Source: Escherichia phage P896. From it: a stretch of 64,000 nucleotides of DNA. The stretch is taken from the sequence record OL451225.1, one strand, 5' to 3'. This document shows, piece after piece, positions 17,082 through 57,030 of this stretch; positions within the stretch are counted from its first letter, which is position 1; the number at the start of each line of letters is the position of its first letter. A program made the position numbers and the translations under genes. The notes under the pieces are model-generated. The model saw only the letters and a list, made by a program, of their open reading frames with translations. It was not told the DNA's origin and ran no database searches.

Positions 17082-17101
17082 CTCCAGTAGTTGATAGGTT
17101 C

Positions 17102-17140
17102 ATTATACTACAACCACCGGAGATGTACACTTTTTTATGC
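17102..17140 (-). promoter_or_regulatory. Early promoter cassette (TGTACA / 16 bp / TATAAT) with ATCAACTACTG leader
   Basis: Minus strand: aaaaaagTGTACAtctccggtggttgtagTATAATgaacctATCAACTACTGGAGATgattATG. Confidence 0.55.
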
Positions 17141-17220
17141 AAGTTTCATTAATAATAAACTAAAACAAACGCAAATTACTGGGATACACAACATCCAGAT
17201 AAGACACCAGGTTTTGCTGC

Positions 17221-17487
17221 TCAAAATATCACCTCTTTGATTTCAATCAGACCCCTGTGCAATGCGGTGCGAAGGTCATAAAGAATATCTATGCCATCAA
17301 CATTATCCAGTTTTCCATCAATAAGCTTTTTTAAATCATGCTTTGATGCAACTAGCGGGCGAAGAAATTTACATTCAGAAAGAGACAATTCTGTAGTAAT
17401 ATCATCACCATCACCTGACGCATCATACATGGCAGCAACAACCATACCTGTAACTTTGTGCTTGGCGTAATATAATTTGATATCCAT
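17221..17487 (-). CDS. Hypothetical protein
   Basis: Track ORF 17221..17583; likely start is the ATG at 17487 (MDIKLYYAKHK..., SD GAGGA), which avoids overlap with the upstream gene. Confidence 0.5.
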   Translation of the reverse strand: MDIKLYYAKHKVTGMVVAAMYDASGDGDDITTELSLSECKFLRPLVASKHDLKKLIDGKLDNVDGIDILYDLRTALHRGLIEIKEVIF

Positions 17488-17497
17488 TTTGTTTTCC

Positions 17498-17704
17498 TCA
17501 ATAATCAGCAAGCAAATCAACAATACAATCGCGAAGACATTTGTTTGCAATACGTTTAAGAGCAATTTCAGTTTCTGGAGCATTTTGAATAATCAAGGAA
17601 TTCAATTCAGCTTCAGCAAATTGCAATTCTTTAACCAGTTCAGCTTTATGCTTGCCTTCGCCTTGTTTTGCTTTAGCACGTTTTAATTCAGCAGTAGTCG
17701 ACAT
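17498..17704 (-). CDS. Hypothetical protein
   Basis: 68 aa ORF preceded by a promoter cassette. Confidence 0.5.
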   Translation of the reverse strand: MSTTAELKRAKAKQGEGKHKAELVKELQFAEAELNSLIIQNAPETEIALKRIANKCLRDCIVDLLADY

Positions 17705-17738
17705 TTTATTCTCCAGTTTGGTAACTCAGTATGGAATC

Positions 17739-17778
17739 ATTATGCACTGACTCCATACTGATGTACACTACTTTTTAA
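17739..17778 (-). promoter_or_regulatory. Early promoter cassette (TGTACA / 17 bp / CATAAT), PeSL-like
   Basis: Minus strand: aaaaagtagTGTACAtcagtatggagtcagtgCATAATgattccatactgagttacc. Confidence 0.6.
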
Positions 17779-18054
17779 TTAATTGTGCATTTGTTCTTTA
17801 ACTTCTTTATATGCGCCAACTGCATTCACGACCCCAGTAAAATCTGCAGTCCCACGATAGAGATAGAAAGCAATTTCAGTCAGGTGGTAGACTTCAAATT
17901 CTGAAAGATAAACGATAACGTCATAATATGCAACTTGGCCCTGGACTTCGTTGAATACCACATCAAAAATTTCATGGGTTGGAAAATTGATGTTGTTGTT
18001 TTTGAGTGCTTGAATAAGAATTTGTTTGATGTTGTGAGTAGTAACGTGTTCCAT
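17779..18054 (-). CDS. Hypothetical protein
   Basis: Track ORF 17779..18144; likely start is the ATG at 18054 (MEHVTTHNIKQ..., SD GAGGA). Confidence 0.45.
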   Translation of the reverse strand: MEHVTTHNIKQILIQALKNNNINFPTHEIFDVVFNEVQGQVAYYDVIVYLSEFEVYHLTEIAFYLYRGTADFTGVVNAVGAYKEVKEQMHN

Positions 18055-18101
18055 GATAATGTCCTCATTTGTTGGTGTGAGGACATTATTCCATAGTTGG
18101 T

Positions 18102-18695
18102 TCAGCTTGTAAACCGGTGATAGGGAAATTTTTCTTCTGAACAAGAACGGAGGTACCAGCCATCCCCTTGTGACTTCTGCACAAGACCAGACTCAGGAAC
18201 GAAAGCACCAGGTCCAGCAAGGAATTTTGGTTTAAATCTATAACCTTTGAGAGTCTCTTTTACATCGAGCATAATCATAAGGTCAGCAAGCTTGTGTTGC
18301 ATAAAAGGACCAAGATTGACCCCGTAACCATGCGGATAATCGCCCTGGTGACCAGTATGCACGGATATCCATTTGGAACCGGACTGATGAGTCTTGACTT
18401 CAATTCTTACGCCTTCTTTCGAAACTACATCAAATGCAAAGGAATAAGGATTATCGTAATCTTCATCACCGCCGCATAAAAAACCGGAGGTCCATTTGGC
18501 AATAGCTTGTTCAGCCATTGTGGCCACCATACATCTTTGCATGACTTGCTCACGGTCCTGACCTGGGTCTTTACGCAATGAATACCTGGCCGTGTCTACA
18601 ATCTTCTGCAGGGATTCAGGGGTTAAGTCTTCCTTCGTATAAAGAAAGGAGGGCATCTTTTTCAGATGCTCCCATGTTTTACTCTTCTGAATCAT
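18102..18695 (-). CDS. denB: Endonuclease IV DenB (candidate, by size and position)
   Basis: 197 aa ORF (T4 DenB about 185 aa) located before rIIB as in T4; no motif-level confirmation. Confidence 0.45.
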   Translation of the reverse strand: MIQKSKTWEHLKKMPSFLYTKEDLTPESLQKIVDTARYSLRKDPGQDREQVMQRCMVATMAEQAIAKWTSGFLCGGDEDYDNPYSFAFDVVSKEGVRIEVKTHQSGSKWISVHTGHQGDYPHGYGVNLGPFMQHKLADLMIMLDVKETLKGYRFKPKFLAGPGAFVPESGLVQKSQGDGWYLRSCSEEKFPYHRFTS

Positions 18696-18948
18696 TTACG
18701 ACCTCATCGATGCCGACGATTCCCCGGATATGAAGCTCGCCATAGTACAAACGGTCATTAGCATCAAATGTATCAGAATCCGGGTCAGGGAATTCCCCAA
18801 CAACTACTTCATCACATTCCAACCAGCCATAGTGAACATCACCTTCATGCTTGATGAGCTTACCGCAGTAAACTATTCCTGCGTAATGGTGACCCCGGAG
18901 ATTTGAAACTTTGATGTCACGGTCTGACACATTGAAATGCTTAATCAT
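18679..18948 (-). CDS. Hypothetical protein
   Basis: 89 aa ORF in track. Confidence 0.45.
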   Translation of the reverse strand: MIKHFNVSDRDIKVSNLRGHHYAGIVYCGKLIKHEGDVHYGWLECDEVVVGEFPDPDSDTFDANDRLYYGELHIRGIVGIDEVVNDSEE

Positions 18949-18951
18949 AAT

Positions 18952-19149
18952 TTATTCACCAAAATAAGAGATACGAGTTGCCAGTACATGAGCATATGCG
19001 CCCATCGCGTCAAGTTGTGAAATCAAAAAACCTTGTTGACGAGCATCGAGAGTTTCAAAAACACCGCCCTTAATAAATTCTTCAAGAGCATTAATTTTCA
19101 AAACCAGCTGGTCATGTTCTTCAACTACACGTGCTTGGAAACCTAACAT
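18952..19149 (-). CDS. Hypothetical protein
   Basis: 65 aa ORF in track. Confidence 0.4.
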   Translation of the reverse strand: MLGFQARVVEEHDQLVLKINALEEFIKGGVFETLDARQQGFLISQLDAMGAYAHVLATRISYFGE

Positions 19150-19182
19150 AAAGCCTCATTAGGGGCCGAAGCCCCGATTAAT

Positions 19183-20157
19183 TTAGAATTGTTCAGTTAC
19201 ATCATCAAGGACTAAGTAACCACACACCCTCATTTTTGCATTATTATAATCCACCGGGATACTTACAACATCACGCGGGTGAACTTTACAGGATACGATG
19301 CGTCCATCACCATGACCAAAACCACTTCCGATATAACCTTTAGAGCAAACATGCAACCCAGTCGAACAAGTCTGTTCGTCATTGTCATTCACACGAGAGC
19401 GCGGCATTTTAACATATTGACCAGGGCTGTTGTCAAATGTGTTTGAGTGGCAATCTTTGTAAGTTGCACGAACCATTTTCCATGCGATGAAATGACCGTC
19501 TTCGGTGATTTCGATATCGTTCGCAACCAGGAAGTCAAACAAACGCTGTACAGCTTTCTCACTCGGGTTCTCAAGGAGATTCTCGAGGAATGGCAGATAG
19601 AATTCAAAGTCTTCGCCATTTTGCATTGAATCAATGATACGAGTAACCAGGCCAGAGCGCAGTTCAATTCCCTGATAGAACAGGCTACCACCTTCAATAC
19701 GCACATCGCCTTTCACATATTTTTGTACTGCAGCTTTGATTGAGATAAACTCGATAGCATCATCAAAACGAGATTCAATCAATGCCTGAATAATATCATT
19801 AAAGTGTTTATGGTCTTTTGTTGCGTTCCAAACCGTACGACCTTCGGTGATGGAAACGAATTTGCTTGATGCATTCCATACGATTTCTGGGCGGCTACCG
19901 CCGATTGTATCTTCAACAACCGGAACTTCAACCGTTACTGCCACTGGAGCATTAATCGCCACCCCGACATCGGCTTTCAATGATGCAGAAATGGTTTTAG
20001 CTAATTTTGATTCTTTATCATTTTTCAAAACACGGCGAATGGTGTCAACCGATACACCGAAATTATCTGCTAGTTCCTGTTGGGTATAATTACCAGTTTT
20101 ATAAAGAGAAACTACCTGATTTTGGTCAAATTTGGATAAAGCTTTAATATTAAACAT
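19183..20157 (-). CDS. rIIB: rIIB (membrane-associated rapid-lysis / exclusion protein)
   Basis: 324 aa; MFNIKALSK..GNYTQQELAD.FGVSVDTIRRVLKN...GDVRIEGGSLFYQGIELRSGLV...FLENLLENPS.KAV.RLFDFLVANDIEITEDG...HPRDVVSIP.DYN.AKMR.C.Y matches T4 rIIB as I recall it. Confidence 0.92.
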   Translation of the reverse strand: MFNIKALSKFDQNQVVSLYKTGNYTQQELADNFGVSVDTIRRVLKNDKESKLAKTISASLKADVGVAINAPVAVTVEVPVVEDTIGGSRPEIVWNASSKFVSITEGRTVWNATKDHKHFNDIIQALIESRFDDAIEFISIKAAVQKYVKGDVRIEGGSLFYQGIELRSGLVTRIIDSMQNGEDFEFYLPFLENLLENPSEKAVQRLFDFLVANDIEITEDGHFIAWKMVRATYKDCHSNTFDNSPGQYVKMPRSRVNDNDEQTCSTGLHVCSKGYIGSGFGHGDGRIVSCKVHPRDVVSIPVDYNNAKMRVCGYLVLDDVTEQF

Positions 20158-20158
20158 A

Positions 20159-22393
20159 TTATTCCTTATTGGTCGCTTCCACGGCCTTCATGATTTGAGC
20201 AACGTTCTGCACTTGTTCAGTTGACATGGCGTTACGGTTATATAAAAAGTGTGAAACAATCGGGTGATTCTTTTCAAATTCAAAAACCATTTTATCGCTT
20301 GTTACCGAAGCGTTTTTGGTCAGGTCGTCATAAATCTTATTACAAAGGACCAGCGTTTCCTGCATGGTCTTATCAACCGTTCCACTGTTATATGCGTTAT
20401 AGGCAAAGAACTTATTGAACTGCATTAGTTCGGCATAGTCAGTATTCACATCTTTCTGAACATCTTTCGCATAAAAATACTTGAACATAAAATTCAGTTC
20501 TGCATATTCAGACAGGATAGGAATATAATAACGCGAACGGCTTGAAGCGGCAATGTACTGGTCCGCATCAACCGCATCAATCAATTCCACATAACGATTG
20601 ACTGCAGCTTCAATCAAACAATCACACTGTGCCAGCTTGGTAACCTTTTTCTGAAGCTGTGGACGAATAACACAGAATTCATTGATTTCCAACAGGTTTG
20701 CCAGTTTACACAATGTCTGGGTCCCGAAGGTCGTGGTGCCATATTCTTGATTCAACGGGGAAATGCTACTGCGGTTAATGAATACAGCATAACCATCGAT
20801 TTCCTCTGCATCAGCTGCACATGTAAATTCTTCAACAGACTGCCATTTGCCGTTGGTTTTAGTCCAACGAATCAATGATGGAGTCTTTGACTTAACGCGC
20901 GCTTTCGGGTCGGCAACCGGAATCCAGTCTTTTACAAGGGCAATCAGTTCAGACGTACGATAGATATTAACCGTATCGCCTTCAAATCGTTCCTGGAGTT
21001 GAACCATCAACCGTGTTTGAATTTCGCTGGTTGGGTCAACGAACAATAGACTACTACCTTGTACAGTCGGAACTTTACCAGATGCTTTGAGCTTTTTGGC
21101 TTTCGCGCTGGTGTCATACAGCATTGAACTGATACCACGAATCATCGCAATTCGCCCTTTAGCATCGTCAATAACAATATTCAAGGTATCATTATGAATA
21201 CCAAACATGCTTGTCAGGCTTGCAGTATTCGTGTTCGAGCTTGAGTTGCGCAGACGTTTCAGACGAGTAGTGCTATAGATATCATAGACAACCCCGGCAT
21301 TAACAAGGTCTTTGTCCAGCTCGAACATTTCGTACATCTGGTTAAAAGTCAATTGTGATTTTGTAAATTTCGTTTCAGCATTACGAGCTTTCAGAAAATT
21401 ACGAGCTTCATAATTCAAACTCTGCAATTCGCGATACGTATGGCGGATGCATTCTGATTCCTGCCATTTCTTACAATCATCTTCCATGACCTTCTTATCA
21501 AGGGATTCAATACGTTCAACGATATTTGCGACCGTACGTTTGTCCAGTGATAATGCTTCGCGAGAAGGTGCAATATCCAACGAACCCATCGGGAACTTAA
21601 TAAAGACAACATCATTTTTGGCAGTCATCCAGGTTTTCTTTGTATAACCGTCACCAATCGGATAAACAATACCACCGTAAATTGCATAAAGTCCATAACG
21701 TTCTGGACTGCTATAATTAATACGCGCTGGAGCATAATAATCATCAAATTCCGGGAAGTATTCAATTTCGCCAGCGCCTTGCACTTCAGCCAGCCCGGCA
21801 AATGGACGCATGATATATGCAATCTCGTGGCGGAACTTACCGAAATCATTACTATCAACCGGGACAACAACTTCAATCCCTGTGCGGTCACCAGGTTTCA
21901 TTGGTTCGCTAAAGGTTGGCTTAATCTGTGGACCATCGCCATCCATATAAGCGACATAACCATTAACTTGTCCATCATGATATGAAATCAGGCTAAACGT
22001 CTCTGTATAACTGAACGGAGATTTAGAACCCAGGCCAAAGCCACCAATAAAATCGTTGGATTCAGCCTTGGATGATGCAAAGAAACTGTTATACAGACCT
22101 GGAGTATTTTCATCACCACGAATCTGGAAATCACTCATACCCGGACCAAAGTCACGACATACAAAACGTGGGTCCAGTTCACCAGGAGCTTGCACAATGA
22201 ATTTATCCTGACAGCCATTGAGCATATGAGCATCAATCATATTGGTAATCAGCTCACGAACAACTGCGCGCACCTTATTTGTGTAAAGGTCGCTGGTCAG
22301 AATCTTAAACACCTTTGGAGATGCCTGGATTGTGAATGCTGACGCCTTGGCACCATTACCAAGGATTGTTTCCTTTTCAGTTTCTAAAATCAT
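20159..22393 (-). CDS. rIIA: rIIA
   Basis: 744 aa (T4 rIIA 725 aa), directly upstream of rIIB; N-terminal GHKL-type ATPase-like region. Confidence 0.9.
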   Translation of the reverse strand: MILETEKETILGNGAKASAFTIQASPKVFKILTSDLYTNKVRAVVRELITNMIDAHMLNGCQDKFIVQAPGELDPRFVCRDFGPGMSDFQIRGDENTPGLYNSFFASSKAESNDFIGGFGLGSKSPFSYTETFSLISYHDGQVNGYVAYMDGDGPQIKPTFSEPMKPGDRTGIEVVVPVDSNDFGKFRHEIAYIMRPFAGLAEVQGAGEIEYFPEFDDYYAPARINYSSPERYGLYAIYGGIVYPIGDGYTKKTWMTAKNDVVFIKFPMGSLDIAPSREALSLDKRTVANIVERIESLDKKVMEDDCKKWQESECIRHTYRELQSLNYEARNFLKARNAETKFTKSQLTFNQMYEMFELDKDLVNAGVVYDIYSTTRLKRLRNSSSNTNTASLTSMFGIHNDTLNIVIDDAKGRIAMIRGISSMLYDTSAKAKKLKASGKVPTVQGSSLLFVDPTSEIQTRLMVQLQERFEGDTVNIYRTSELIALVKDWIPVADPKARVKSKTPSLIRWTKTNGKWQSVEEFTCAADAEEIDGYAVFINRSSISPLNQEYGTTTFGTQTLCKLANLLEINEFCVIRPQLQKKVTKLAQCDCLIEAAVNRYVELIDAVDADQYIAASSRSRYYIPILSEYAELNFMFKYFYAKDVQKDVNTDYAELMQFNKFFAYNAYNSGTVDKTMQETLVLCNKIYDDLTKNASVTSDKMVFEFEKNHPIVSHFLYNRNAMSTEQVQNVAQIMKAVEATNKE

Positions 22394-22400
22394 GTTTTTC

Positions 22401-22610
22401 TCACTTTATGTTACGTTTGATTAATTCTGCAACTTCAAGAAGTTCATCCTTTGTTGCGGTGTCTGAAGCTATTTTATTACGGATTTCTTTGAAGCGTTCT
22501 TTAAACTCTTCGGCTTCTCTTATATCAAAAAATCGTTGGATAACGCGGTATTCTTTATGAACAGCTTTATCAAACAGCTCCATATTAACTTTGAAGTTCG
22601 TCATTTCCAA
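22401..22610 (-). CDS. Hypothetical protein (rIIA.1 position)
   Basis: 69 aa ORF in track. Confidence 0.45.
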   Translation of the reverse strand: MEMTNFKVNMELFDKAVHKEYRVIQRFFDIREAEEFKERFKEIRNKIASDTATKDELLEVAELIKRNIK

Positions 22611-22869
22611 TCTCCTGTAATATTTTTCTCATACTACGCATGGTAGCTTTATGTTCTTGGTCATGGTATATCAATGCAAGGAGTGCTTCAATTCGCTCCT
22701 CAGGGACCTTCTGGCCAGCCTTAATACTCATGGCTGTTGTTCTTACAGCTAATAAGTAACTTCGCTTCCTGTCGCTGTCTGGGAGCTCCTGCACCTTCCT
22801 CAGACCAGCTTCCATAATACAACGAGCAACATTTTGCAGATTAACTAAACTTCCGTCAGACATAATCAT
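22585..22869 (-). CDS. Hypothetical protein
   Basis: 94 aa ORF in track. Confidence 0.45.
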   Translation of the reverse strand: MIMSDGSLVNLQNVARCIMEAGLRKVQELPDSDRKRSYLLAVRTTAMSIKAGQKVPEERIEALLALIYHDQEHKATMRSMRKILQEIGNDELQS

Positions 22870-22917
22870 ATTTTCACCTCAAAGACATCTTAACACACTT
22901 TTTGTGGCTTGTACATA

Positions 22918-22942
22918 ATAAAAAGGTCTCCCGAAGGAGACC
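22918..22942 (-). terminator. Intrinsic terminator-like hairpin
   Basis: ggtctcccgaaggagacc hairpin followed on the minus strand by a T-run. Confidence 0.5.
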
Positions 22943-22947
22943 AAATT

Positions 22948-23136
22948 TTATTCTACTTTATAGACCTGACCATACGCCATGAAAGTTTCACCTTCCCAGG
23001 TTTCGCACGTGATTGTCACAAATTCTGCAAACAAAGGTTTTTTCTCTGCCCAGAGAAAACCATATTCACCGGTAGCGAGTGTAATCCAGTATTTAGTCAT
23101 ATTGTCTCCTAGTAGCGGGAGAATATTCTCCCACAT
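22948..23136 (-). CDS. Hypothetical protein
   Basis: 62 aa ORF in track, just downstream of gene 39. Confidence 0.4.
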   Translation of the reverse strand: MWENILPLLGDNMTKYWITLATGEYGFLWAEKKPLFAEFVTITCETWEGETFMAYGQVYKVE

Positions 23137-23140
23137 CTAT

Positions 23141-25480: not shown

Positions 25481-25481
25481 G

Positions 25482-26612: not shown

Positions 26613-26654
26613 AATTTTCTCTCTTGGTTAATAAATTTATTCTCCAGTGGGGTC

Positions 26655-27444: not shown

Positions 27445-27701
27445 TATGCAACCTTATTGAACATCGCCAGTTGATTAGGTTGTACAACCATAATTTCACG
27501 ACGACCTTTTGTATTTGACACGTTCAGGTAGATGCCTTTGTTCATGTCTGTTTCTTTATCATATACCGCAATTTTATTGACAGTAAAGATTTTACCACGA
27601 ATATTTGCAAATGCACATTCAAACGCTTTAGTCAGACCTGCTTCAGCAGCTTGAAGAGCGGACATTTCATATTGTTGGCCAATTTCAAAAGAAGTAATCA
27701 T
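27444..27701 (-). CDS. Hypothetical protein (85 aa)
   Basis: Track ORF 27444..27749; likely start is the ATG at 27701 (MITSFEIG...), preceded by a promoter cassette and the ATCAACTACTGATGAGGA leader. Confidence 0.5.
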   Translation of the reverse strand: MITSFEIGQQYEMSALQAAEAGLTKAFECAFANIRGKIFTVNKIAVYDKETDMNKGIYLNVSNTKGRREIMVVQPNQLAMFNKVA

Positions 27702-27732
27702 TTTGTTGTCCTCATCAGTAGTTGATGAGATG

Positions 27733-27772
27733 ATTATGTCTCTTTCCATTGGCCTTGTACACTACTTTTTAT
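27733..27772 (-). promoter_or_regulatory. Early promoter cassette (TGTACA / 17 bp / CATAAT) with ATCAACTACTG leader
   Basis: Minus strand: aaaaagtagTGTACAaggccaatggaaagagaCATAATcatctcATCAACTACTGATGAGGAcaacaaaATG. Confidence 0.6.
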
Positions 27773-31202: not shown

Positions 31203-31817
31203 TCAGTAAGAAAGAACGGAAAGATTCCATAATTTATAGTCTTCCCATCTATAAATGCTCTCAATAGAGTCCACGCGTAGCGTAGTTCCCGCAGGGAACA
31301 TCATCTCATCTTCATCATTTACTAATTGTAAGTTTGAAGAACGAGTTATTTCAGGATATAGTCCGTTGAACTCTTCAGGAGGTGCCGCACAAATCATTTT
31401 AAAAATCGCTTCCTGATAATCAAATGCGAATGGTGCATCATTAATACAGAAAATATTTTTGGTTCCATAGAAGCTAAAGGAAGCAAAGTTACGCGCAACA
31501 CTGAAATCTTTGGAGAAACTCATTACACGGTCAAACTCAATCGTAGCACCAACACATCCTACGGTTTCAAGATATGCCAAAGTTTTCTTAGAAATCCCGC
31601 GATATAACTTACCAGGCACAACAGAAGTCAAATTCTTACGAATAATTTTGTTCAAAGTTTCCTGGATAGTGTCTGGCTTATTTTCCATGCACTGCCAGAG
31701 TGTACTCTGTTCCAACTCAGAGTAAATTTCATCAATTTCAATCTGGGTATTTTCGCGAAAATATTCACATTTAACTGCATTGATGTACTCTGCTAATTGG
31801 TGACTTGCGTACAGCAT
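31203..31817 (-). CDS. ModA/ModB-family mono-ADP-ribosyltransferase (R-S-ExE class)
   Basis: Track ORF 31203..31850; likely start at ATG 31817 (MLYASHQ...). Motifs in order: LYRG (Arg), SFSKD (S-x-S), DEDEMMF (ExE). Which of the pair is modA and which modB is not resolved. Confidence 0.7.
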   Translation of the reverse strand: MLYASHQLAEYINAVKCEYFRENTQIEIDEIYSELEQSTLWQCMENKPDTIQETLNKIIRKNLTSVVPGKLYRGISKKTLAYLETVGCVGATIEFDRVMSFSKDFSVARNFASFSFYGTKNIFCINDAPFAFDYQEAIFKMICAAPPEEFNGLYPEITRSSNLQLVNDEDEMMFPAGTTLRVDSIESIYRWEDYKLWNLSVLSY

Positions 31818-31848
31818 TTTATTATCCTCATCAGTAGTTGATAGGAAC

Positions 31849-31885
31849 ATCTTAACATGTCTTATTGTGCTTGTACACAGTCAAG
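31849..31885 (-). promoter_or_regulatory. Early promoter cassette (TGTACA / 17 bp / TAAGAT) with ATCAACTACTG leader
   Basis: Minus strand: TGTACAagcacaataagacatgtTAAGATgttcctATCAACTACTGATGAGgataataaaATG. Confidence 0.5.
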
Positions 31886-34267: not shown

Positions 34268-34312
34268 AGTATTCTCCTCTGTAGTTGAGATAATTATACC
34301 ATCTCTATTAAA

Positions 34313-38242: not shown

Positions 38243-38536
38243 TTATTCACCTGTAACCCATTGAACAATTTTGCTATTGTCAAATGAAGCATCGCAATAC
38301 AGAATATAGTTATACTGCATAACGTCACCAGAAGACAATTGGTCAGATACTTCTTTAACCATATCAGGGCGGTCACGTTTGGTTATGTTCATGATATCAG
38401 CACGAATCTGGGTTTCAACTTCAGATTGCTCTGCTGTCATAGACCATTCACAAAGGTTTTTATCAAGCCCAGCAGTAACTGGAGCTGTACCACATGATGC
38501 TACGGTAAGAATTGCTGCAATAATTAACTTTTTCAT
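38243..38536 (-). CDS. sp: Periplasmic lipoprotein, Spackle (Sp)-like by size and position
   Basis: 97 aa with signal peptide/lipobox MKKLIIAAILTVASCG; T4 Sp (61.3) is a 97 aa secreted protein in the 61-41 interval. Assignment is by size and position only. Confidence 0.45.
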   Translation of the reverse strand: MKKLIIAAILTVASCGTAPVTAGLDKNLCEWSMTAEQSEVETQIRADIMNITKRDRPDMVKEVSDQLSSGDVMQYNYILYCDASFDNSKIVQWVTGE

Positions 38537-38564
38537 AATGTTCTCCTCAGTAGTTGATATGGAT

Positions 38565-38594
38565 AATATACTGCATTATCCCTTTGATGTAAAC
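38565..38594 (-). promoter_or_regulatory. Early promoter (GTTTACA minus-35 / 17 bp / TATATT) with ATCAACTACTG leader
   Basis: Minus strand: GTTTACAtcaaagggataatgcagTATATTatccatATCAACTACTGAGGAGaacattATG. Confidence 0.5.
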
Positions 38595-38596: not shown

Positions 38597-38800
38597 TTAT
38601 TTTTCGTTAGAACGATAATCACATTCAAAAACTTTATTGTCATTAACAAAGGCTTTAACCAGCGCATTATTCACTTCTGCATACTGCACTGTAACCCATT
38701 CAATCATATTTTTGTCACTGACATCCAGCGCGGTTTCTTTGGTAAACATATTACCATTTTCAAACCAACCAATAAACAATACGTTCTCTAATTTATACAT
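38597..38800 (-). CDS. Hypothetical protein
   Basis: 67 aa ORF in track. Confidence 0.45.
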   Translation of the reverse strand: MYKLENVLFIGWFENGNMFTKETALDVSDKNMIEWVTVQYAEVNNALVKAFVNDNKVFECDYRSNEK

Positions 38801-39118
38801 TTAGATTTCCTCACAAAACGCCCAGGCAGCGTGATAAACTGTTGCGCCTTTAGTATCATTTAAACAAACCACGTCAACAGGTGCAATCACACGATAAAGA
38901 CGGGGTTCTCCTCCATATGAGCGAGCTGCTCTTCCTGCATAGATACGCGCCAAACCAATATCTTCAGTAAAAAACACACGCCCTAAATTTTTCTTACGCC
39001 CAACTTCTGACAGAACACCAGTTGCATCAGGAGGACAAAGCATATTTTGGATTCCAGCATTAGAGCTTGACCCATGATAATAAACTTTGTATTCTGCCTT
39101 GCAATCAATGGTTTTCAT
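38801..39118 (-). CDS. Hypothetical protein with possible H-G-S (PARP/diphtheria-toxin-class) ADP-ribosyltransferase-like signature
   Basis: 105 aa; YHGSSSNAGIQNM..PP....G then GRVFFTEDIGLARIYAG resembles the PARP catalytic-core pattern HGS..NFAGIL......PP....G...GKGIYFA; too short for a canonical domain, so speculative. Confidence 0.5.
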   Translation of the reverse strand: MKTIDCKAEYKVYYHGSSSNAGIQNMLCPPDATGVLSEVGRKKNLGRVFFTEDIGLARIYAGRAARSYGGEPRLYRVIAPVDVVCLNDTKGATVYHAAWAFCEEI

Positions 39119-39154
39119 TTTATTCTCCAGTAGTTGATAGGGTCATTATAACAT

Positions 39155-39177
39155 AAGAAAAAGGGGCTGTAAGCCCC
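39155..39177 (-). terminator. Intrinsic terminator-like hairpin
   Basis: ggggctgtaagcccc hairpin followed on the minus strand by a T-run; next is a TATAAT plus ATCAACTACTGGAGA leader for the downstream gene. Confidence 0.5.
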
Positions 39178-39186
39178 TTTGTTCAC

Positions 39187-39489: not shown

Positions 39490-39538
39490 ATGGTTTTCCT
39501 TTTAACAGTTGGTTTATTGTGTAACTCAGTATGGAATC

Positions 39539-39578: not shown

Positions 39579-39816
39579 CATTAATTAAATGAAAATCTTG
39601 TGCATTGAAAGTAATGAAAAAATAATCATTCCCTTCAACTGAAGCATGACAGGCAACACTACACCAGCGCCTTGCTCTGTTCAAGGAGCAATCCAAAATT
39701 TTAAAAGGCTTCAGACCAACAATGGCAGCTGTTCTTTTATTATGCTCACAAATATCAGCATACTTTTGGAGAGCTTCTTCAGATTTGAACTGGTAATGCA
39801 CATTAACTAATAACAT
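39568..39816 (-). CDS. Hypothetical protein (adjacent to gene 41, where T4 carries dmd)
   Basis: 82 aa ORF with the ATCAACTACTGATGAGGA leader upstream; T4 Dmd is 60 aa, so equivalence is only positional. Confidence 0.4.
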   Translation of the reverse strand: MLLVNVHYQFKSEEALQKYADICEHNKRTAAIVGLKPFKILDCSLNRARRWCSVACHASVEGNDYFFITFNAQDFHLINELK

Positions 39817-39882
39817 TTTATTATCCTCATCAGTAGTTGATGGGATAATAGTACACCCTTTTTATGAGGATGTAAACCCCTA

Positions 39883-43590: not shown

Positions 43591-43829
43591 TTTGCTTCCT
43601 TGATGATAATTACTTGTGCATTTGATTTACGTTCAGCAACGAGTGCCCAGATAAATGCAATAAACCATCCGACCATTGTCCAACCTAACAGGAGGTTAAC
43701 AAAGAAGATTCCGCAATTACTTTTGGTTCCACGCAGTAGCGCGATAATCCACGGCAGAAAATATACCAGTGCAGCCAGGAAGAAAGAACCAGCCCCAAGA
43801 ACAACAGTACCCGCAATTAATGCTTCCAT
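43587..43829 (-). CDS. imm: Superinfection immunity protein Imm (membrane)
   Basis: Track ORF 43587..43901; likely start at ATG 43829, giving an 80 aa two-TM protein (T4 Imm 83 aa) directly downstream of gene 43. Confidence 0.7.
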   Translation of the reverse strand: MEALIAGTVVLGAGSFFLAALVYFLPWIIALLRGTKSNCGIFFVNLLLGWTMVGWFIAFIWALVAERKSNAQVIIIKEAK

Positions 43830-43901
43830 TTTAATATCCTCAAGTTTGTAATCAGTAGTTGATGGAACAATCATACGGCAATCCTTTGCCGTTGTAAACA
43901 C

Positions 43902-51728: not shown

Positions 51729-51978
51729 CGTAATAAGCATCCTTGATACATGATTCAGCCATATGGATTAATGCCTCTGGAGTATCATCTTCCATTACAT
51801 TAAAGCTAAATTCCACGGCCCAATCGGTGACTACATAGACTTTGATAAGTTGACCAGTTTCCCGGTCAGTGATAGCTTCAAACCAATACTTAATAGTATT
51901 CGGTTGATTATCGTCGTCAACCACATCACATTCGCGGATATGCTCAAGTCCCGCTTCATTAAAATCATAAAGTCTCAT
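51715..51978 (-). CDS. Hypothetical protein (46.1 position)
   Basis: 87 aa ORF in track. Confidence 0.45.
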   Translation of the reverse strand: MRLYDFNEAGLEHIRECDVVDDDNQPNTIKYWFEAITDRETGQLIKVYVVTDWAVEFSFNVMEDDTPEALIHMAESCIKDAYYDEDF

Positions 51979-52994
51979 TGTTGCACCTCAAGATATAATT
52001 TGTTGGCCAATGCTTTGAGAGCTTTTGATTCTTTCTCATTGGCGTCAGGTAATGCATCGATATATTCTGCCATCATATCTGTTAAGCGTTTTATGTCTAA
52101 CTCTTCATCAGAGTCTGACGTATCAACACTGTTATCAACCTTATTGACAACACGCAATTCATGCACACGCTTTTCTAATTCAGATTCGAACTTGGTCAGG
52201 TCTTTATCGACTTTTTCTACAATAACACGGACTGATAAGTCTTTGAAGTCGTCGTAGTTAATAGTTTCGTTTGGATAGAAAATCTTCCGATGCCAGGTGG
52301 TTTCATTCGGAATAAATTTCATCTCTTCGGTTTCGGTATCAAATTCCCAGAACCCGCGCGGGTCGTTCTCATCACCTGCTGTTAATGTCCATGGTGTCCC
52401 GATGTACTTAACGTTTGCGGCTTCTGAAATGGTATGAAAGTGACCAGACCAAACTTGCTTGTACTTCTTAAGGAAATCAGGCTCAAGTCCGTGGGATTTC
52501 AATCCTTTATAGAAATAAAACCCGGTTAATTCCCAGTGACCGATGCAATATTCAGCCCCAGAAGTTTTGATGTGTTGATGAATGTCAGTTGCGTTCTCGT
52601 CACACATCCATGGAATCATATCAATCTGATAACCGTCAAAATCAACAGTCGTTGGCTTATCGTAGATTTTAACATGGTCATACTTATTCAGGAGTTCAGT
52701 GATAGCATTGGGATGAATCTTATTCTTCAGATTCATGTCATGGTTCCCGACTATCGTGTGCATAGTAATTCCTGCTTCACGAAGGAGTTCCATAATCTCA
52801 CGGCTGAATTCCATCGTCTTATGCGTTACGGCCTTACGGACGTCAAAAATATCACCATATTGAATCCAGACTTTAATCCCATTCGCTTTGGAATATGCAA
52901 TCGCCTGTAAAATACCATCGCGTTGAATGTTTTGAGCCCATGGGTCGTCAGCTTTGACACCCAAGTGCCAATCACCTAAATTTAAAATTTTCAT
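51975..52994 (-). CDS. 47: Recombination endonuclease subunit gp47 (Mre11/SbcD-like)
   Basis: Track ORF 51975..53021; likely start at ATG 52994 (MKILNLGDWHLG...), giving 339 aa (T4 gp47 339 aa); calcineurin-like phosphoesterase motifs GDWH, GNHD, GHFH. Confidence 0.9.
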   Translation of the reverse strand: MKILNLGDWHLGVKADDPWAQNIQRDGILQAIAYSKANGIKVWIQYGDIFDVRKAVTHKTMEFSREIMELLREAGITMHTIVGNHDMNLKNKIHPNAITELLNKYDHVKIYDKPTTVDFDGYQIDMIPWMCDENATDIHQHIKTSGAEYCIGHWELTGFYFYKGLKSHGLEPDFLKKYKQVWSGHFHTISEAANVKYIGTPWTLTAGDENDPRGFWEFDTETEEMKFIPNETTWHRKIFYPNETINYDDFKDLSVRVIVEKVDKDLTKFESELEKRVHELRVVNKVDNSVDTSDSDEELDIKRLTDMMAEYIDALPDANEKESKALKALANKLYLEVQQ

Positions 52995-53181
52995 AAGCCA
53001 AGCACCGTTATCGCAATGCAAAATAAAATTATTGAAATGAACCCGTCAGGAGTGGAAAAGAATCCTATCCAACAAGCTCGTGTGAATGTATAGAATGCCA
53101 TGAATAGCACGACATATCCTAAAAATAATTCCATATGTTCTCCTCAGTTGGTTCATTTTATCATCCCGAATATAAAGCAAA

Positions 53182-53198
53182 AAGGAAGCACTAGGCTT
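53182..53198 (-). terminator. Terminator-like hairpin
   Basis: ggaagcactaggcttcc hairpin followed on the minus strand by a T-run. Confidence 0.4.
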
Positions 53199-53422
53199 CC
53201 TTTCCAATTAATACACCATACAGAGGTTCATGAGAAGACCTGAACTTGATAGGCTTATAGGTAATAGTACCTTCATTTTCTGCTTTAATACGAGCGGCTT
53301 CAAATTGAAGTATCATCTCATTTTTGTCAGATTTAATCTTATCAAAATCCGTCGAATTCGTCATTCATATGACCTCTTAAACTTTTTCGTATTCGTCGTT
53401 CATTAGCCTGCTGTCCATGTTA

Positions 53423-53629
53423 TCATCGTTGCCACCATTTCTTAAGTTGATGTGAGTCTACCCAAACTTTGGATGTCGGCTCAATTTTAACAATACCTTT
53501 TGGAACACCATAAGGGCCAAGGAGCTTACATTCGGTTTCGGACTGCTTGATACAGATATTACCGTATGAGCGAAGTCTGAAAGCGGCTCCAATAAGAAGC
53601 CGTTTAAAAGGTTTATTTACTAATGCCAT
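53423..53629 (-). CDS. Hypothetical protein
   Basis: 68 aa ORF in track. Confidence 0.4.
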   Translation of the reverse strand: MALVNKPFKRLLIGAAFRLRSYGNICIKQSETECKLLGPYGVPKGIVKIEPTSKVWVDSHQLKKWWQR

Positions 53630-53924
53630 TTACGATTTCCCAAATTTGTTTGCGAGTAGAATCCCACATCAACTTAATCAGGTCTTCCGTAACGGGTTGG
53701 CGGTAAATCCCACGCAGTTTAACTAAAGCGTATTTGTATGCTTCAAAATTGTTTTCCAGCACTGCGCCTTGAGCATGCTTATTCAGTCGTGCAATTTCAC
53801 GAGCATTCTTTTTCAGAATCTTCGCTGCTTGGCTGGTTGCTTCAAGTGCGTTCGCTTCTTCGAGACGTTCCTGTGCTTCTTCAATCTGCTTATCGGTCAG
53901 TTGAGAAATATCTGGAGCTTGCAT
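53613..53924 (-). CDS. Hypothetical protein
   Basis: 103 aa ORF in track. Confidence 0.45.
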   Translation of the reverse strand: MQAPDISQLTDKQIEEAQERLEEANALEATSQAAKILKKNAREIARLNKHAQGAVLENNFEAYKYALVKLRGIYRQPVTEDLIKLMWDSTRKQIWEIVNGISK

Positions 53925-53925
53925 A

Positions 53926-54177
53926 TTAATCCTTGGGAGTTAACTCAATTGTAAAATATAGATTAGCATTATCCACATGATAACGGTAATCAACGTTATT
54001 ATCCGGTGAAGTAAATTCCAGATTCCGGACGTTTAAAGGGTCGATATCAATTGGAAGACCTTTTATGTCTCGCAGATAAAGTTTAATGAAATATGGGAGC
54101 GCCGTAAAGTCTTCCTCGATTTTATCTAAAAAATCGGTAATATCAAATTGATGTTCCATATAAAAAATCCAAATCAC
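53926..54177 (-). CDS. Hypothetical protein
   Basis: 83 aa ORF in track. Confidence 0.45.
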
Positions 54178-54700
54178 CCTCTTTATCTTTGGCGCTCTTA
54201 TCAGACCCTGGCGCTTTAACTAAGGAGGATTCGTACTGTGTCATTTTGTCGTAGATGTCCTGGATAAATGTTTCATCAGCCAGAGCCACCATATCGTCAT
54301 CACGTGAATCGTATACGTTATGGACGAAGTAGCTATATTTCTTTGCCATTTCTTTACGTTCTTTTTTGATACGCTGAACGAAAGCATTGAAGCAAGCCAT
54401 TGTTATGTAAGCATGTGGATTATCGTATTTTGTTTCGTCGAAGTTGTGAAGACCTTTTATTGCGGCCTCAATTCCGTCCGCTATCATTTCTTGCTTCCAG
54501 GATTGGGTATATCCGGAGAAGTTGAAACGTTTGCTAAGACCTTCGGCTATAAGCATAATCGCCAGACCAATAACATCGTTCTGGCGAATAATTTTGTTCG
54601 GGTCAGTGTTCGCATTCAGCTTCTGTTTCCACTCCGAAATAGCTTTCAAAAGCTCTTTATTATTTACATAGTTATTCTTGGTTAATTTAATTTCGTTCAT
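54143..54700 (-). CDS. 55: Late-transcription sigma factor gp55
   Basis: 185 aa (T4 gp55 185 aa); [127 protein letters not shown] matches T4 gp55 as I recall it. Confidence 0.93.
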
Positions 54701-54748
54701 ATCGCCTCACTTAGTATATGAATATTATATCATCCTTTATACAAAGCA

Positions 54749-55015
54749 TTAGCGAAGTAAACAGTAAGCCTGGAAGACCTTCTCCATAATTGCCTTAAAT
54801 TCATGGATGTCAATATAAGGGATAACCTCGGCATCACTAATGAATTCCATCAGACGGTCATGCTCGTTGCGGTATTGTCCTTCATTCAACATGCCGATAT
54901 GGGACTCCCACGAGCCATACCCTTCTACGTGTGGGAAGAATGTTATTTTCATGAATTCATCCACCCAAAACGTTCCCAGGTCCTGGATGGATATCATTGT
55001 ATGATTGATGTGCAT
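54749..55015 (-). CDS. Hypothetical protein
   Basis: 88 aa ORF in track. Confidence 0.45.
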   Translation of the reverse strand: MHINHTMISIQDLGTFWVDEFMKITFFPHVEGYGSWESHIGMLNEGQYRNEHDRLMEFISDAEVIPYIDIHEFKAIMEKVFQAYCLLR

Positions 55016-55281
55016 CAGTACACCAATTGAGCAGCTTCTAAAACATCATCAAGCTTATCAAACTGGTCAATATAATCAATCCCACCAACTTCATCTTTAG
55101 CATACAACCAATATTGGTGGAATTCATATTCAATAATAAAGTGGTCACCTTCAATCTGGAGAACCCCATCACCATTAAATTGAACTGCATAACCCGTAAA
55201 GCGGACATCATTCAGGAGTTCTTCTTTCATAGTAATCATTTCCAAGTTTTTATCGTAATTAGAGAGTTTTATTTTAATCAT
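55015..55281 (-). CDS. Hypothetical protein
   Basis: 88 aa ORF in track. Confidence 0.45.
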   Translation of the reverse strand: MIKIKLSNYDKNLEMITMKEELLNDVRFTGYAVQFNGDGVLQIEGDHFIIEYEFHQYWLYAKDEVGGIDYIDQFDKLDDVLEAAQLVY

Positions 55282-55537
55282 TTAAGTAGTCCAGGAATTC
55301 GTCTAATGTCATGCCTTCCGCCCAAGCTTCCCAAGCATCGATTTTAGTGTACTTGGTTTTAGTACACATAGGATAGATTCTGAATTCATATCCCATTGCA
55401 ATGAAATAATTTAAAGTCCTTTGTAAATAGTATCCTTGGCTAATTTTATGAGCTCGGCGAATTCCATTAGCATACGTATGTTTGTAAGATACTATCACCG
55501 CAACACCTTCAGGTAATTCAATAGCAGGACACATCAT
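55274..55537 (-). CDS. Hypothetical protein
   Basis: 87 aa ORF in track. Confidence 0.45.
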   Translation of the reverse strand: MMCPAIELPEGVAVIVSYKHTYANGIRRAHKISQGYYLQRTLNYFIAMGYEFRIYPMCTKTKYTKIDAWEAWAEGMTLDEFLDYLND

Positions 55538-55860
55538 TTCGCACCCTTAATAATTTTCAGGTCAACAAAACCTTTCTTACGCTGGGAATTCATGCGCTTG
55601 ATGGCTTTGTCAGAAACTTCTTTGTTTTCACGTGGAAGCGGCAGACCAAACGCTACTACATCAAATTCATTCAGGATATACTGGACAAGGCTTTCACGAA
55701 TACGCGCTTTACCCATTGTCTGACCTTCTGCAATAATTAGCTTCTGTACATCGCCTTCCCACTGGTCCAGAATTTCAGGGGTAACGAAACCAGATTTCAT
55801 CAGAGTGTTGACTTTAGCAAACGCGAAATTAGCGATGGTGTTAGTGATAGATGCAGTCAT
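55534..55860 (-). CDS. Hypothetical protein
   Basis: 108 aa ORF in track; first gene of a four-gene overlapping operon. Confidence 0.5.
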   Translation of the reverse strand: MTASITNTIANFAFAKVNTLMKSGFVTPEILDQWEGDVQKLIIAEGQTMGKARIRESLVQYILNEFDVVAFGLPLPRENKEVSDKAIKRMNSQRKKGFVDLKIIKGAK

Positions 55861-55902
55861 GATATATTCCTCAGTCTCATTAAATTAAAATTTTATTATC
55901 CT

Positions 55903-55924
55903 GGGGTCATTATACCATGACCCC
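55903..55924 (-). promoter_or_regulatory. Extended minus-10 promoter (TGgTATAAT) embedded in an 8 bp stem hairpin
   Basis: Minus strand: GGGGTCATGgTATAATGACCCC, about 45 nt upstream of the ATG at 55860; same ggggtca..tgacccc arms as the cassettes at 16051 and 26650. Confidence 0.5.
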
Positions 55925-55932
55925 GTTGGTTT

Positions 55933-56130
55933 TTATTGCGCTTTAGCCGCTTTCCAGCCTTCATACATCATTGCGGCTGATATTAATATCGCTCCTGAAC
56001 AACTTGAATACTTGTGATTCCAAAACCAGTTTAGAAAAACTTCGTCATCGATACCTTGAGCTATCATATTTTCAAAGAACTGACGACGAGCTTCAGCAAT
56101 TCGCTGTGATAATTTAGATTCAGGGTTCAT
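55933..56130 (-). CDS. Hypothetical protein
   Basis: 65 aa ORF in track. Confidence 0.4.
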   Translation of the reverse strand: MNPESKLSQRIAEARRQFFENMIAQGIDDEVFLNWFWNHKYSSCSGAILISAAMMYEGWKAAKAQ

Positions 56131-56262
56131 TTAAATTTTCCAGTTACCGTTTTCATCAATAAATTCAATCCAGTCATTTACTGACCACTTGGTTGTATCG
56201 CCTTTTGGAGCAGAATTTAAAGCGTATAATCCTTGTTTAAAAAGCATTCGTTTGATATTCAT
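56131..56262 (-). CDS. Small hypothetical protein (43 aa)
   Basis: Track ORF 56131..56355; likely start at ATG 56262 (MNIKRMLF..., SD GAGGA), avoiding overlap with the upstream gene. Confidence 0.35.
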   Translation of the reverse strand: MNIKRMLFKQGLYALNSAPKGDTTKWSVNDWIEFIDENGNWKI

Positions 56263-56269
56263 GTTTTCC

Positions 56270-56563
56270 TCAGCTGTAACGATAGCACTCGTTTGATTTA
56301 CGTTTTGCAACACGGTGAGAAGTATTATAATCAAAATCATCCTCAACGTATACATCTTTTTTCAACTGACGAACTTCTTTACGCAGTTGACGATTCATCT
56401 CATTCTTGACTTCTGAATCAACGCCACGCATACGCTTCCATTTGTCTGAACGGAAGATATTTTCTTCAACTTGTTCCTGACTTACACCATCAGGCGCTCG
56501 GCGACGCCCTGAATAATAAAAATCTTTTACAGACAATTCTTTGCGACGAATAGTTTTACCCAT
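56270..56563 (-). CDS. Hypothetical basic (Arg/Lys-rich) protein
   Basis: 97 aa ORF in track. Confidence 0.45.
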   Translation of the reverse strand: MGKTIRRKELSVKDFYYSGRRRAPDGVSQEQVEENIFRSDKWKRMRGVDSEVKNEMNRQLRKEVRQLKKDVYVEDDFDYNTSHRVAKRKSNECYRYS

Positions 56564-56565
56564 AG

Positions 56566-56820
56566 TTACCTCAGCAGTTTGTATCCAATAAGCTTTTTAA
56601 TGTACTGGATATCTTTGACATCCAAATCCAACTTAAGGTCTTTCAGACGGTCGACCAGGGTCAAAAAGGTTACATGTTTCCAATTCTTCACTGGGCAACA
56701 ATAAGTCTTAGGACCATTTGCAATTTCAATATTTTTATCTGTGACGGTGATAAAAATCAAACGTTCATCATCAAGATTAAGGGTGGCGACATTTTTCATT
56801 GAATGTAATTTCAGGCTCAT
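56566..56820 (-). CDS. Hypothetical protein
   Basis: 84 aa ORF in track. Confidence 0.45.
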   Translation of the reverse strand: MSLKLHSMKNVATLNLDDERLIFITVTDKNIEIANGPKTYCCPVKNWKHVTFLTLVDRLKDLKLDLDVKDIQYIKKLIGYKLLR

Positions 56821-56999
56821 AATTTAGGTCCTTTTGCAACTGTATTGAACAAGCTACGGTCACACACCATCAACGGAGCATCAGGCCATTTCAAAGGACG
56901 ATACCATACATCTTGGTCCGTCACTTTGGTTACTTGCACAGGATAGCCATTTACTGAATAATACTGGTCGGCTTTAATTTCTTTATCTTCAATAACCAT
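56817..56999 (-). CDS. Hypothetical protein (60 aa)
   Basis: Track ORF 56817..57077; likely start at ATG 56999 (MVIEDKE...), preceded by a promoter cassette and the ATCAACTACTGATGAGGA leader. Confidence 0.45.
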   Translation of the reverse strand: MVIEDKEIKADQYYSVNGYPVQVTKVTDQDVWYRPLKWPDAPLMVCDRSLFNTVAKGPKL

Positions 57000-57030
57000 T
57001 TTGTTTTCCTCATCAGTAGTTGATGGGATA

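Follow-up and report, generated by a model that had tools for sequence, protein, structure and literature searches.

The early promoters of bacteriophage T4 have been described as "uber" promoters, combining UP, -35, TGn and -10 elements with 'additional regions of consensus' (Hinton review, PMC2988021). In the promoter logos of Nolan et al. the putative start is counted as nucleotide 0 and, in the accessible text, nothing downstream of it is discussed. Composite elements known as PeSL cassettes have been reported from RB49/phi1, PST and nt-1; as described in the accessible parts of the two papers, they consist of an AT-rich region, a sigma-70-like promoter, a stem-loop in variable position and a Shine-Dalgarno (SD) sequence with the ATG (Arbiol et al., 2010, PMC2839356; Comeau et al., 2014, PMC4122927). 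Moreover, in the T4 genes e, soc, 49 and I-TevI a hairpin hides the ribosome-binding site (RBS) in read-through RNA and is bypassed by an internal late or middle promoter (PMC3014915). The present analysis concerns an 11-nucleotide (nt) sequence, ATCAACTACTG, repeated in front of small genes in a 64,000-nt window of Escherichia phage P896 (record OL451225.1); the window is the whole stretch that was analysed, and coordinates are window positions unless another genome is named. This 11-mer is the segment from +1 to +11 of a T4-type early-promoter/leader cassette and the modal form of a preferred initial transcribed sequence. The enterobacterial Tevenvirinae have the start consensus to which it belongs in common, with copies that are particularly numerous and alike in Gaprivervirus.

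The window comes from a Gaprivervirus (SP18/VR7-like) and shares 97% identity with Gapriverviruses, namely Escherichia phages 212 and CJ20, Shigella phage SP18 and the VR7/VR20 group. It holds eight exact copies of the 11-mer, all on the minus strand (Table 1), where 0.06 are expected by chance and none of 100 shuffles reaches eight. A preliminary description of this DNA had listed the same eight copies and placed each of them 6 nt after a -10 hexamer; both statements hold, every copy beginning exactly 6 nt past a hexamer of the form.A...T (8/8). Seven different -10 hexamers thus precede an invariant 11-mer. Each -10 lies 16-17 nt past a T4-type -35 (T[G/T]TACA or CTTACA), the base at -1 is a pyrimidine, and the combination that characterizes T4-type early promoters (a -35 of the GTTTAC kind, a spacer of 16-18 nt and a -10 with A2 and T6) is present at all eight copies. 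Further upstream, A is the commonest base at -50, -49 and -44 to -39, a qualitative observation on eight sequences that is exemplified by aaaaagTGTACA and ataaaaagtagTGTACA and indicates an UP-like A-rich region. The order of the cassette is therefore an UP-like A-rich region, a GTTTAC-type -35, the -10, a C/T-rich discriminator of 6 nt, the start A-T-C-A-A-C..., the SD and the ATG.

At the 3' end of the element, the SD and the start codon of the served gene are found in 8/8 copies. Counted from the first A of the motif, the ATG is 20-34 nt downstream (9-23 nt past the motif end), which is close to the 10-25 nt given previously; at 17085 the first ATG is only 3 nt past the motif, and the next ATG is the likely start. 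The sequence directly after the 11-mer is ATGAGGA in four copies, GAGA in two (reading CTGGAGA), AGGAGA in one and ATTACAAAC in one. The downstream genes on the same strand include orthologues of T4 early genes (sp, imm, ndd.4, 55.6, goF-like and ModA/B-like); imm, the Sp-like gene and the ADP-ribosyltransferase paralogue, already named in the preliminary description, are joined by a goF-like gene and several small open reading frames (ORFs). A generic sigma-70 scan lists all of the copies in its range (5/5); overall it returns 54 sites against 52.6 expected, which is not above chance, and the assignment to early promoters consequently rests on the T4-type hexamers and on orthology.

Table 1. 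Coordinates of the motif-bearing cassettes in the window (all on the minus strand; the 11-mer spans +1 to +11).
Cassette	Served gene	-35	-10	11-mer	SD	ATG	Other feature
17073..17129 (-)	ndd.4-like 38-aa ORF	TGTACA 17124-17129	TATAAT 17102-17107	17085-17095	GGAG 17082-17085	17073-17075	
27699..27761 (-)	85-aa ORF (phrog_17795)	27756-27761	CATAAT 27733-27738	27716-27726	GAGG 27710-27713	27699-27701	
31815..31877 (-)	ModA/ModB-like ADP-ribosyltransferase, 204 aa	31872-31877	TAAGAT 31849-31854	31832-31842	31826-31829	31815-31817	
38534..38593 (-)	spackle (sp, 97 aa)	TTTACA 38588-38593	TATATT 38565-38570	38548-38558	38545-38548	38534-38536	
39116..39180 (-)	105-aa ORF (phrog_2110)	CTTACA 39168-39173	TATAAT 39145-39150	39128-39138	GGAG 39125-39128	39116-39118	
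39814..39876 (-)	goF-like 82-aa ORF	39871-39876	TACTAT 39848-39853	39831-39841	39825-39828	39814-39816	
43827..43898 (-)	imm, 80 aa	43893-43898	TATGAT 43870-43875	43853-43863	43838-43841	43827-43829	spacer hairpin 43875-43892
56997..57075 (-)	gp55.6-like 60-aa ORF	TGTACA 57054-57059	TATCAT 57031-57036	57014-57024	57008-57011	56997-56999	
34279..34289 (-), degenerate ninth copy	upstream of mrh.2-like ORF	none	extended -10 TGgTATAAT, 3 nt before the copy	34279-34289, CTCAACTACAG			

The degenerate ninth copy likewise follows a -10. Between 34279 and 34340 on the minus strand, a terminator-like hairpin, GGGAACCTTCGGGTTCCCTTTTT, is followed by TGgTATAAT without a -35, then by AACTACAGAGGAG and by the mrh.2-like gene. 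A promoter of the extended -10 or middle type, making use of the 3' portion of this leader, may be present here.

The relation of the motif to the promoter was followed in T4 (NC_000866.4, complete), TH41 (Gaprivervirus, MT446412.1, complete), a Mosigvirus, a Dhakavirus-like record of 100 kb and a Klebsiella T4-like phage. Among 50 promoter-linked sites of the shorter form ATCAACTA, taken from six sequences and five lineages, the distance to the -10 is 6 nt without exception (50/50), and that to the ATG varies from 19 to 37 nt. Because the first distance is constant and the second is variable, the motif is fixed to the 5' end of the transcript and not to the RBS. Of the roles considered in the preliminary description for an element at the transcript 5' end, that of an initial-transcribed-region signal is the one that fits best, whereas none of the tests made gave support to processing or to the binding of a regulator. 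Transcription is predicted to start at the first A of the motif, which is the seventh base past the -10, the canonical sigma-70 position. The same rule, by which +1 is the seventh nucleotide after the -10, gives the published T4 coordinate of the early promoter Pe133295 (RefSeq note) and map unit 150,727, at which Figure 4 of another report starts its schematic of Pe148.6 (PMC6024815). This agreement with two T4 coordinates, although indirect, suggests that the A of ATCAAC is +1, as predicted.

The exact 11-mer has no sharp boundary. At positions +9/+10 of the 50 sites, CT is found in 33 (32 of which are the full 11-mer), CA in nine, AT in three and CG in two, and three other dinucleotides occur once each. 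A second set of promoters was picked in the five genomes by -35, -10, SD and ATG only, blind to the motif. Here the majority sequence from +1 is ATCAACTAC(T)G in T4, in the Dhakavirus-like phage and in TH41, and the G content from +1 to +10 is 0.07-0.13 in all five genomes, compared with a background of 0.19-0.21. The form ATCAACTA stands at +1 in 15/38 of these promoters in TH41, 11/31 in the Dhakavirus-like phage, 7/36 in T4, 7/46 in the Mosigvirus and 1/29 in the Klebsiella phage. The 11-mer is thus the modal member of a graded family (ATC > ATCAAC > ATCAACTA > full 11-mer) that decays from 5' to 3', and not a discrete site of 11 nt. The preliminary description missed both this gradation and the fact that the start is common to T4-type early promoters.

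Length variants belong to the same family. At the imm promoter, the window reads ATCA-ACT-ACT-G (ATCAACTACTG, 43853-43863) and TH41 (~115150) reads ATCA-ACT-G (ATCAACTG), with one ACT unit fewer; a short form of the motif is also present in T4 at 55348. Around this imm promoter the DNA of the window and of TH41 is ~97% identical, and yet the two are unlike in the discriminator and the next 8 nt as well.

The motif is not private to this phage: it is common to T4 and to at least four other lineages of Tevenvirinae. A 40-nt query taken from one copy matches 600 phage records, with hosts that include Escherichia, Klebsiella, Shigella, Salmonella, Yersinia and others; among the matches are the T4 promoter PE1 upstream of trna.4 (GTTTACA...TACTATtaccctATCAACTACTGAGGAGAATAAAATG) and the cef promoter of Klebsiella phage KP179. 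In an IMG/VR scan for the motif followed by GAG, nearly all of the matches listed were single chance matches, and a related-locus search with spackle gave 5 close relatives. The complete T4 genome has six exact copies on the early strand, each 6 nt past a -10 (upstream of motA, motB, imm.1, e.8 and trna.4, and in the ndd region), as well as one-mismatch forms at the denV, nrdC.8, sp and ndd.4 promoters. In TH41, 16 promoters carry the exact motif and one a one-mismatch form; the corresponding numbers are three and five in the Dhakavirus-like record, two and six in the Mosigvirus, and one and none in the Klebsiella phage. Exact copies are essentially confined to promoters, on the gene strand, since elsewhere none was counted in the first three of these and a single one, in coding sequence, in the Klebsiella phage.

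Starting from the motif-bearing genes of TH41, their orthologues elsewhere were taken whatever promoter they have; in this test, which does not select for the motif, 27 orthologues had a promoter of their own. Ten of the 27 carry ATCAACTA and 18 an ATC start, and the remaining starts are related forms (ATCAACTG, ATCAACAAC, ATCAAATCAA and ACCAACTAATG). The promoters of ndd.4, denV, nrdC.8, sp, trna.4, e.8 and the 105-aa gene retain ATCAACTA across genera, with unrelated spacers. For instance, the T4 counterpart of the ndd.4 promoter at 17085 reads ATCAACTATGG; the T4 sp promoter, counterpart of the one at 38548, reads ATAAACTACTGAGGAGA behind an unrelated spacer, and the Dhakavirus-like orthologue of the same promoter retains the exact motif. 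For the 105-aa gene (39128), ATCAACTA is retained in the Mosigvirus and in the Dhakavirus-like phage. The T4 promoter of 55.6, orthologous with the one at 57014, has a different start, ATGAATTACCT. Since orthologous promoters retain the motif despite fully diverged spacers, the start consensus appears, on this comparison, to be under purifying selection across genera.

With regard to the function of the 11-mer, the reading judged probable combines choice of the start, promoter escape, an open leader and the spread of cassettes. The first level of action would be DNA and RNA polymerase, where the start would be set by the A at the canonical +1 position and the pyrimidine that precedes it. The motif is G-free up to +10, and the G-free, A/C/U-rich first ten nt may let the host RNA polymerase start on, and rapidly clear, promoters to which it is very tightly bound; with very strong promoter contacts, the escape step is expected to limit output. 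As RNA, the same segment would give a short, nearly unstructured and G-poor leader in which the SD is left open. In fact, transcripts starting at the motif are predicted to be nearly unstructured, with minimum free energies between 0 and -4.3 kcal/mol for the eight window copies. Finally, the near-identity within one genome probably comes from purifying selection together with the spread and recombination of promoter cassettes, in a shuffling of the PeSL type; the mosaic cassette at 163440 in TH41, some boundaries between the window and TH41 at promoter edges and the crossovers mapped in PeSL elements (all given below) are signs of such recombination. Comparable cases are T5 N25 (against its variant N25anti), T7 A1 and lambda PL, lytic-phage promoters of the sigma-70 kind that are likewise very strong, start at an A and have a defined sequence in the early transcribed part. 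The T7 A1 and lambda PL transcripts also begin with AUC. The likeness of ATCAACTACTG to the initial-transcribed-sequence effects at these promoters may serve as a lead only.

Several points weigh against this combination. The motif is present at only 15-40% of the early promoters per genome (3% for the Klebsiella phage), and being restricted to a minority it is dispensable for early transcription. A rule of G-poor, A/C-rich composition alone fails to account for a genome with 16 exactly identical copies. The +1 of the motif promoters, in this phage as in T4, is a prediction from the spacing to the -10. Exact-string literature searches for the motif gave only unrelated primers and no experiment on it, and for this reason the role in initiation and escape is inferred.

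A different, less probable explanation is that the 11-mer has no function of its own and is merely a recombination linker, which provides homology for cassette exchange or gene conversion and is kept uniform by concerted evolution. Crossovers of PeSL elements have been mapped between the -10 and the ATG in RB49 (Arbiol et al., PMC2839356), and the copy number of the motif, from 1 to 16 between genera, would be in line with such a process. Moreover, sub-families with longer shared blocks exist: 28 nt are common to the copies at 31832 and 39831, 26 nt to those at 39831 and 57014, and in T4 ~90 bp are nearly identical in five copies. Discriminator types and start types are also combined mosaically; at 163440 in TH41, a class-B -10 and discriminator, CATAATgattcc, is joined to a class-A start. 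However, exact blocks shared by two window copies measure at most 28 nt (median 12.5 nt), and most pairs have only 11-13 nt in common, a length insufficient for homologous exchange; gene conversion should, moreover, have carried flanking sequence along. Ungapped identity among the copies is 0.36 in the upstream 100 nt, 0.34 in the promoter spacers and 0.27 in the coding part. The same start is found at orthologous promoters in which the spacers, and even the -10s, have fully diverged, which argues for purifying selection over recent copying, and the fall of conservation from +1 in the 5' to 3' direction is the pattern of a start-site element. As for the breakpoints between the window and TH41, some lie at promoter edges (38605/38618, 17702 and 18941) and others do not. 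Two differences that begin at promoter or leader edges deserve mention in their own right. The 68-aa gene after the class-B promoter at 17732 (window 17500-17702) is replaced in TH41 from the start codon on, and TH41 has ~355 bp of extra sequence directly upstream of the sp promoter (window 38605-38618).

It has also to be considered whether positions +1 to +11 are a binding site, either at the 5' end of the mRNA or as a DNA operator, for a phage or host factor that coordinates the shut-off, stability or processing of an early subset. This must be regarded as doubtful. The exact identity over 11 nt does exceed the conservation of the -10 here and is more than a rule of composition needs; +1 to +11 is a classic operator position, and the motif occurs in a subset of early genes, as expected of a regulon. 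In addition, the mechanism by which T4 early promoters are turned off and the determinants of their stimulation by Alt are stated to be unresolved (PMC2988021). On the other hand, the cross-genus consensus is graded and has length variants (ATCAACTG, ATCAACAAC, ATCAAATCAA) without a sharp boundary, the motif has no dyad symmetry of its own, and no candidate binder was found. A more specific version, in which ATCAACTACTG marks an immediate-early regulon that is read at +1 to +11, on DNA or at the nascent 5' end, by a phage factor or by the Alt-modified RNA polymerase, is improbable; if true, it would account for the rapid shut-off of T4 early promoters, or for the stimulation of only some of them by Alt.

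Known RNA-level functions have also been considered, and the results for RegB and Rfam given here count against such a binding site as well. Cleavage by RegB with S1 requires sequence located 3', not 5', of GGAG, the site being GGA followed by an A-rich sequence, with 11 nt single-stranded (PMC1702504). As the 11-mer lies 5' of GGAG, it is ruled out as a RegB determinant. A separate element, GGAGAAUAAAA, which follows the motif at 39128, resembles a RegB site. Pairing with 16S rRNA, as in a translational enhancer, was also rejected, because the best duplex with the E. coli molecule reaches -7.2 kcal/mol against a shuffle mean of -9.5, a strength equalled or exceeded by 95% of the shuffles; perfect matches to E. 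coli 16S are no longer than 5 nt. Rfam 15 gave no match at the gathering threshold anywhere in the window. A -10-like element inside the motif, capable of causing a sigma-dependent pause, was discarded by inspection, since TACTGA lacks the essential final T. Stabilisers of the ompA type are stable hairpins at the extreme 5' end of the transcript. A hairpin of this kind was excluded as well: the 5'-terminal hairpin, AUCA/UGAU, forms in only 5/8 copies and is worth -1 to -2 kcal/mol. The preliminary description was right that conservation lies in the primary sequence rather than in the local hairpin.

A further proposal is structural. The motif would pair, as 3' arm of a stem-loop, with a 5' arm in the spacer or discriminator, and the SD would be masked in read-through RNA only, RNA from the local promoter being translated; in a variant of this proposal, the AUCA/UGAU hairpin would shield the 5' end. 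At some promoters the spacer just past the -35 is indeed reverse-complementary to the 3' portion of the motif together with the SD, over 13-15 bp with -19 to -25 kcal/mol and z scores down to -7 relative to shuffled upstream sequence. The spacer at 17085, for example, pairs with +2 to +18 in 15 bp including G-U pairs (-25 kcal/mol, z = -6.6), and at 39831 the spacer sequence TCCTCAT is complementary to ATGAGGA (z = -2.2). The presence of G-U pairs points to RNA, and matching variants are found in both arms (TCTCCTGTAG/CTACAGGAGA, TCTCCATTAG/CTAATGGAGA, TTCCTCCAAG/CTTGGAGGAA and TCTCCAGTAGTTG/CAACTACTGGAGA). In an alignment of eight sequences the helix is 96% paired, compared with 32-59% when the partner columns are slid. 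In this alignment no more than two pairs vary in both arms at once, and the covariation is not significant against shuffles (55/500). As the 5' arm is not part of the transcript of the local promoter, the stem is confined to read-through RNA, where it would hide the SD.

In such RNA the mean probability that the SD is paired is 0.72, against 0.64 with shuffled upstream sequence, and masking exceeds the shuffles at ~15/50 motif sites, where the SD is fully paired, and at 2/8 window copies, 17085 and 27716. At the latter, a local hairpin, CUCAUCA/UGAUGAG, is present in the read-through RNA only, and 0.03 of the shuffles reach its degree of masking. The hairpin that had been suggested to sequester the SD in part is predicted to mask it significantly in read-through RNA only, and at these two copies only; in the transcript of the promoter itself it is weak (-1 to -2 kcal/mol). 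Upstream-leader complementarity with z < -2 is found at 12/41 motif promoters and at 27/146 other early promoters (Fisher p = 0.19). Being as frequent at promoters without the motif, the stem-loop is not the reason for the conservation of the 11-mer, and shuffling the upstream sequence leaves most of the apparent masking in place. ATCAA, where conservation is highest, mostly lies in the loop. As an explanation of the motif the structural proposal is hence very unlikely. The stem-loop is a PeSL-like feature of general occurrence, present at between a fifth and a quarter of these promoters. Over five Tevenvirinae genomes, 39/187 predicted early promoters show the complementarity at z < -2; in the inspected cases the 5' arm adjoins the -35 and is an anti-SD (TCTCC or TCCTC), which would mask the SD in read-through RNA only.

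That the repeat reflects chance, or one recently duplicated longer segment, has practically no likelihood: nothing beyond the repeat itself speaks for it, eight copies were observed against 0.06, the flanks are unrelated, with no identical stretch approaching the more than 100 bp that a long duplication would leave, and the motif occurs in five phage lineages.

Some structural details of the cassettes and of neighbouring promoters are worth recording. Stem-loops differ in kind and position among the copies: a GC hairpin lies over the -35 at 39128 and 57014, a hairpin in the spacer at 43853 and another over the -10 at 38548, a spacer-to-leader stem is present at 17085, local hairpins at 27716 and 39831, and a weak one at 31832. 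At 39160-39180 and 57045-57075 on the minus strand, a GC-rich hairpin with a T run holds the -35 hexamer in its loop (AAAGGGGCTTACAGCCCCTTTTT and AAAAGGGGTGTACAAGCCCCTTT), so that in the cassettes at 39128 and 57014 a terminator-like hairpin and the next promoter occupy the same 25 nt. In the T4 motB promoter (~6590-6630), the spacer contains a perfect inverted 11-mer (CAGTAGTTGAT ... ATCAACTACTG), which places the -10 in the loop of an 11-bp stem.

Two other families of early-promoter starts are present on the minus strand of the window. The second family, with predicted starts at 39532, 31086, 17732 and 13618, has the form aaaagtagTGTACA...CATAAT/TATAATga(t/a)tccATACTGAGTT(A/T).. and longer leaders. 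The third, with predicted starts at 26648, 16464 and 16051, begins with TGTACAaactcttggggtcagagTATAATgaccccACTGGAG... and has a GGGGTC/GACCCC stem around the -10; a T4 promoter near 7214 shows the same design (GGGACC...GGTCCC). The tetranucleotide ACTG is common to the second family, to the 11-mer (ATCAACT-ACTG) and to the third family.

From these data, the 11-mer is an ordinary component of T4-type early promoters, real, non-random and selected. The first 5-11 transcribed bases, selected across genera, are part of the 'additional consensus' mentioned in reviews (PMC2988021). The conserved start is not spelled out in the accessible reviews, which list UP, -35, TGn and -10, and may already be shown in Miller et al. 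(2003), Liebig and Rüger (1989) or Wilkens and Rüger. In practical terms, the motif is a reliable marker for the annotation of early promoters and starts in Gaprivervirus and related Tevenvirinae (in TH41, 16/16 copies are at promoters), and it shows which small accessory genes (imm, sp, the ADP-ribosyltransferase paralogue and several ORFs) have an immediate-early promoter of their own. As the motif is also found in T4, in front of motA, motB and further well-studied genes, a role in start choice, escape, Alt stimulation or early shut-off could be tested in that phage. The general picture of how these phages work is unchanged by the finding.

Compared with the T4 genes e, soc, 49 and I-TevI, the likeness is that a minority of early promoters start inside a stem-loop whose 3' arm covers the SD. 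The differences are that here the internal promoter is an early one, that the structure is independent of the 11-mer and that it is significant at only two of the eight window copies. There is also a likeness to PeSL elements. The window cassettes are composite elements before small accessory genes, with an indel boundary adjoining some of them, and they contain everything that enters the definition of PeSL at the sequence level (promoter, stem-loop, SD and ATG), with a stem-loop of some kind at most copies and a weak one at 31832. The PeSL papers define the element by promoter, stem-loop and SD and, in their accessible text, do not single out a conserved initial transcribed sequence (PMC2839356; PMC4122927). 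Termination or attenuation by the stem-loop and recombination of copies into mini-circles are experimental properties of PeSL elements (PMC2839356). Close counterparts are the T4 early promoters of motA, motB, imm.1, e.8, trna.4 (PE1), denV, nrdC.8 and sp, which have the same architecture, the same spacing and the same early-gene strand as the window copies. The identical 11-mer at +1 of six T4 promoters and the one-mismatch forms at four more include orthologues of the window promoters of sp, ndd.4 and the imm region. In T4, however, the motif is combined with a single -10 type (TGgTACTAT) and often with a long leader (ATCAACTACTGATACAG...GGAG), whereas in this phage it follows seven -10 hexamers, the -35 is often GTGTAC and the leaders are short; it is also more frequent, with eight copies in 64 kb here and 16 per genome in TH41, as against six in T4.

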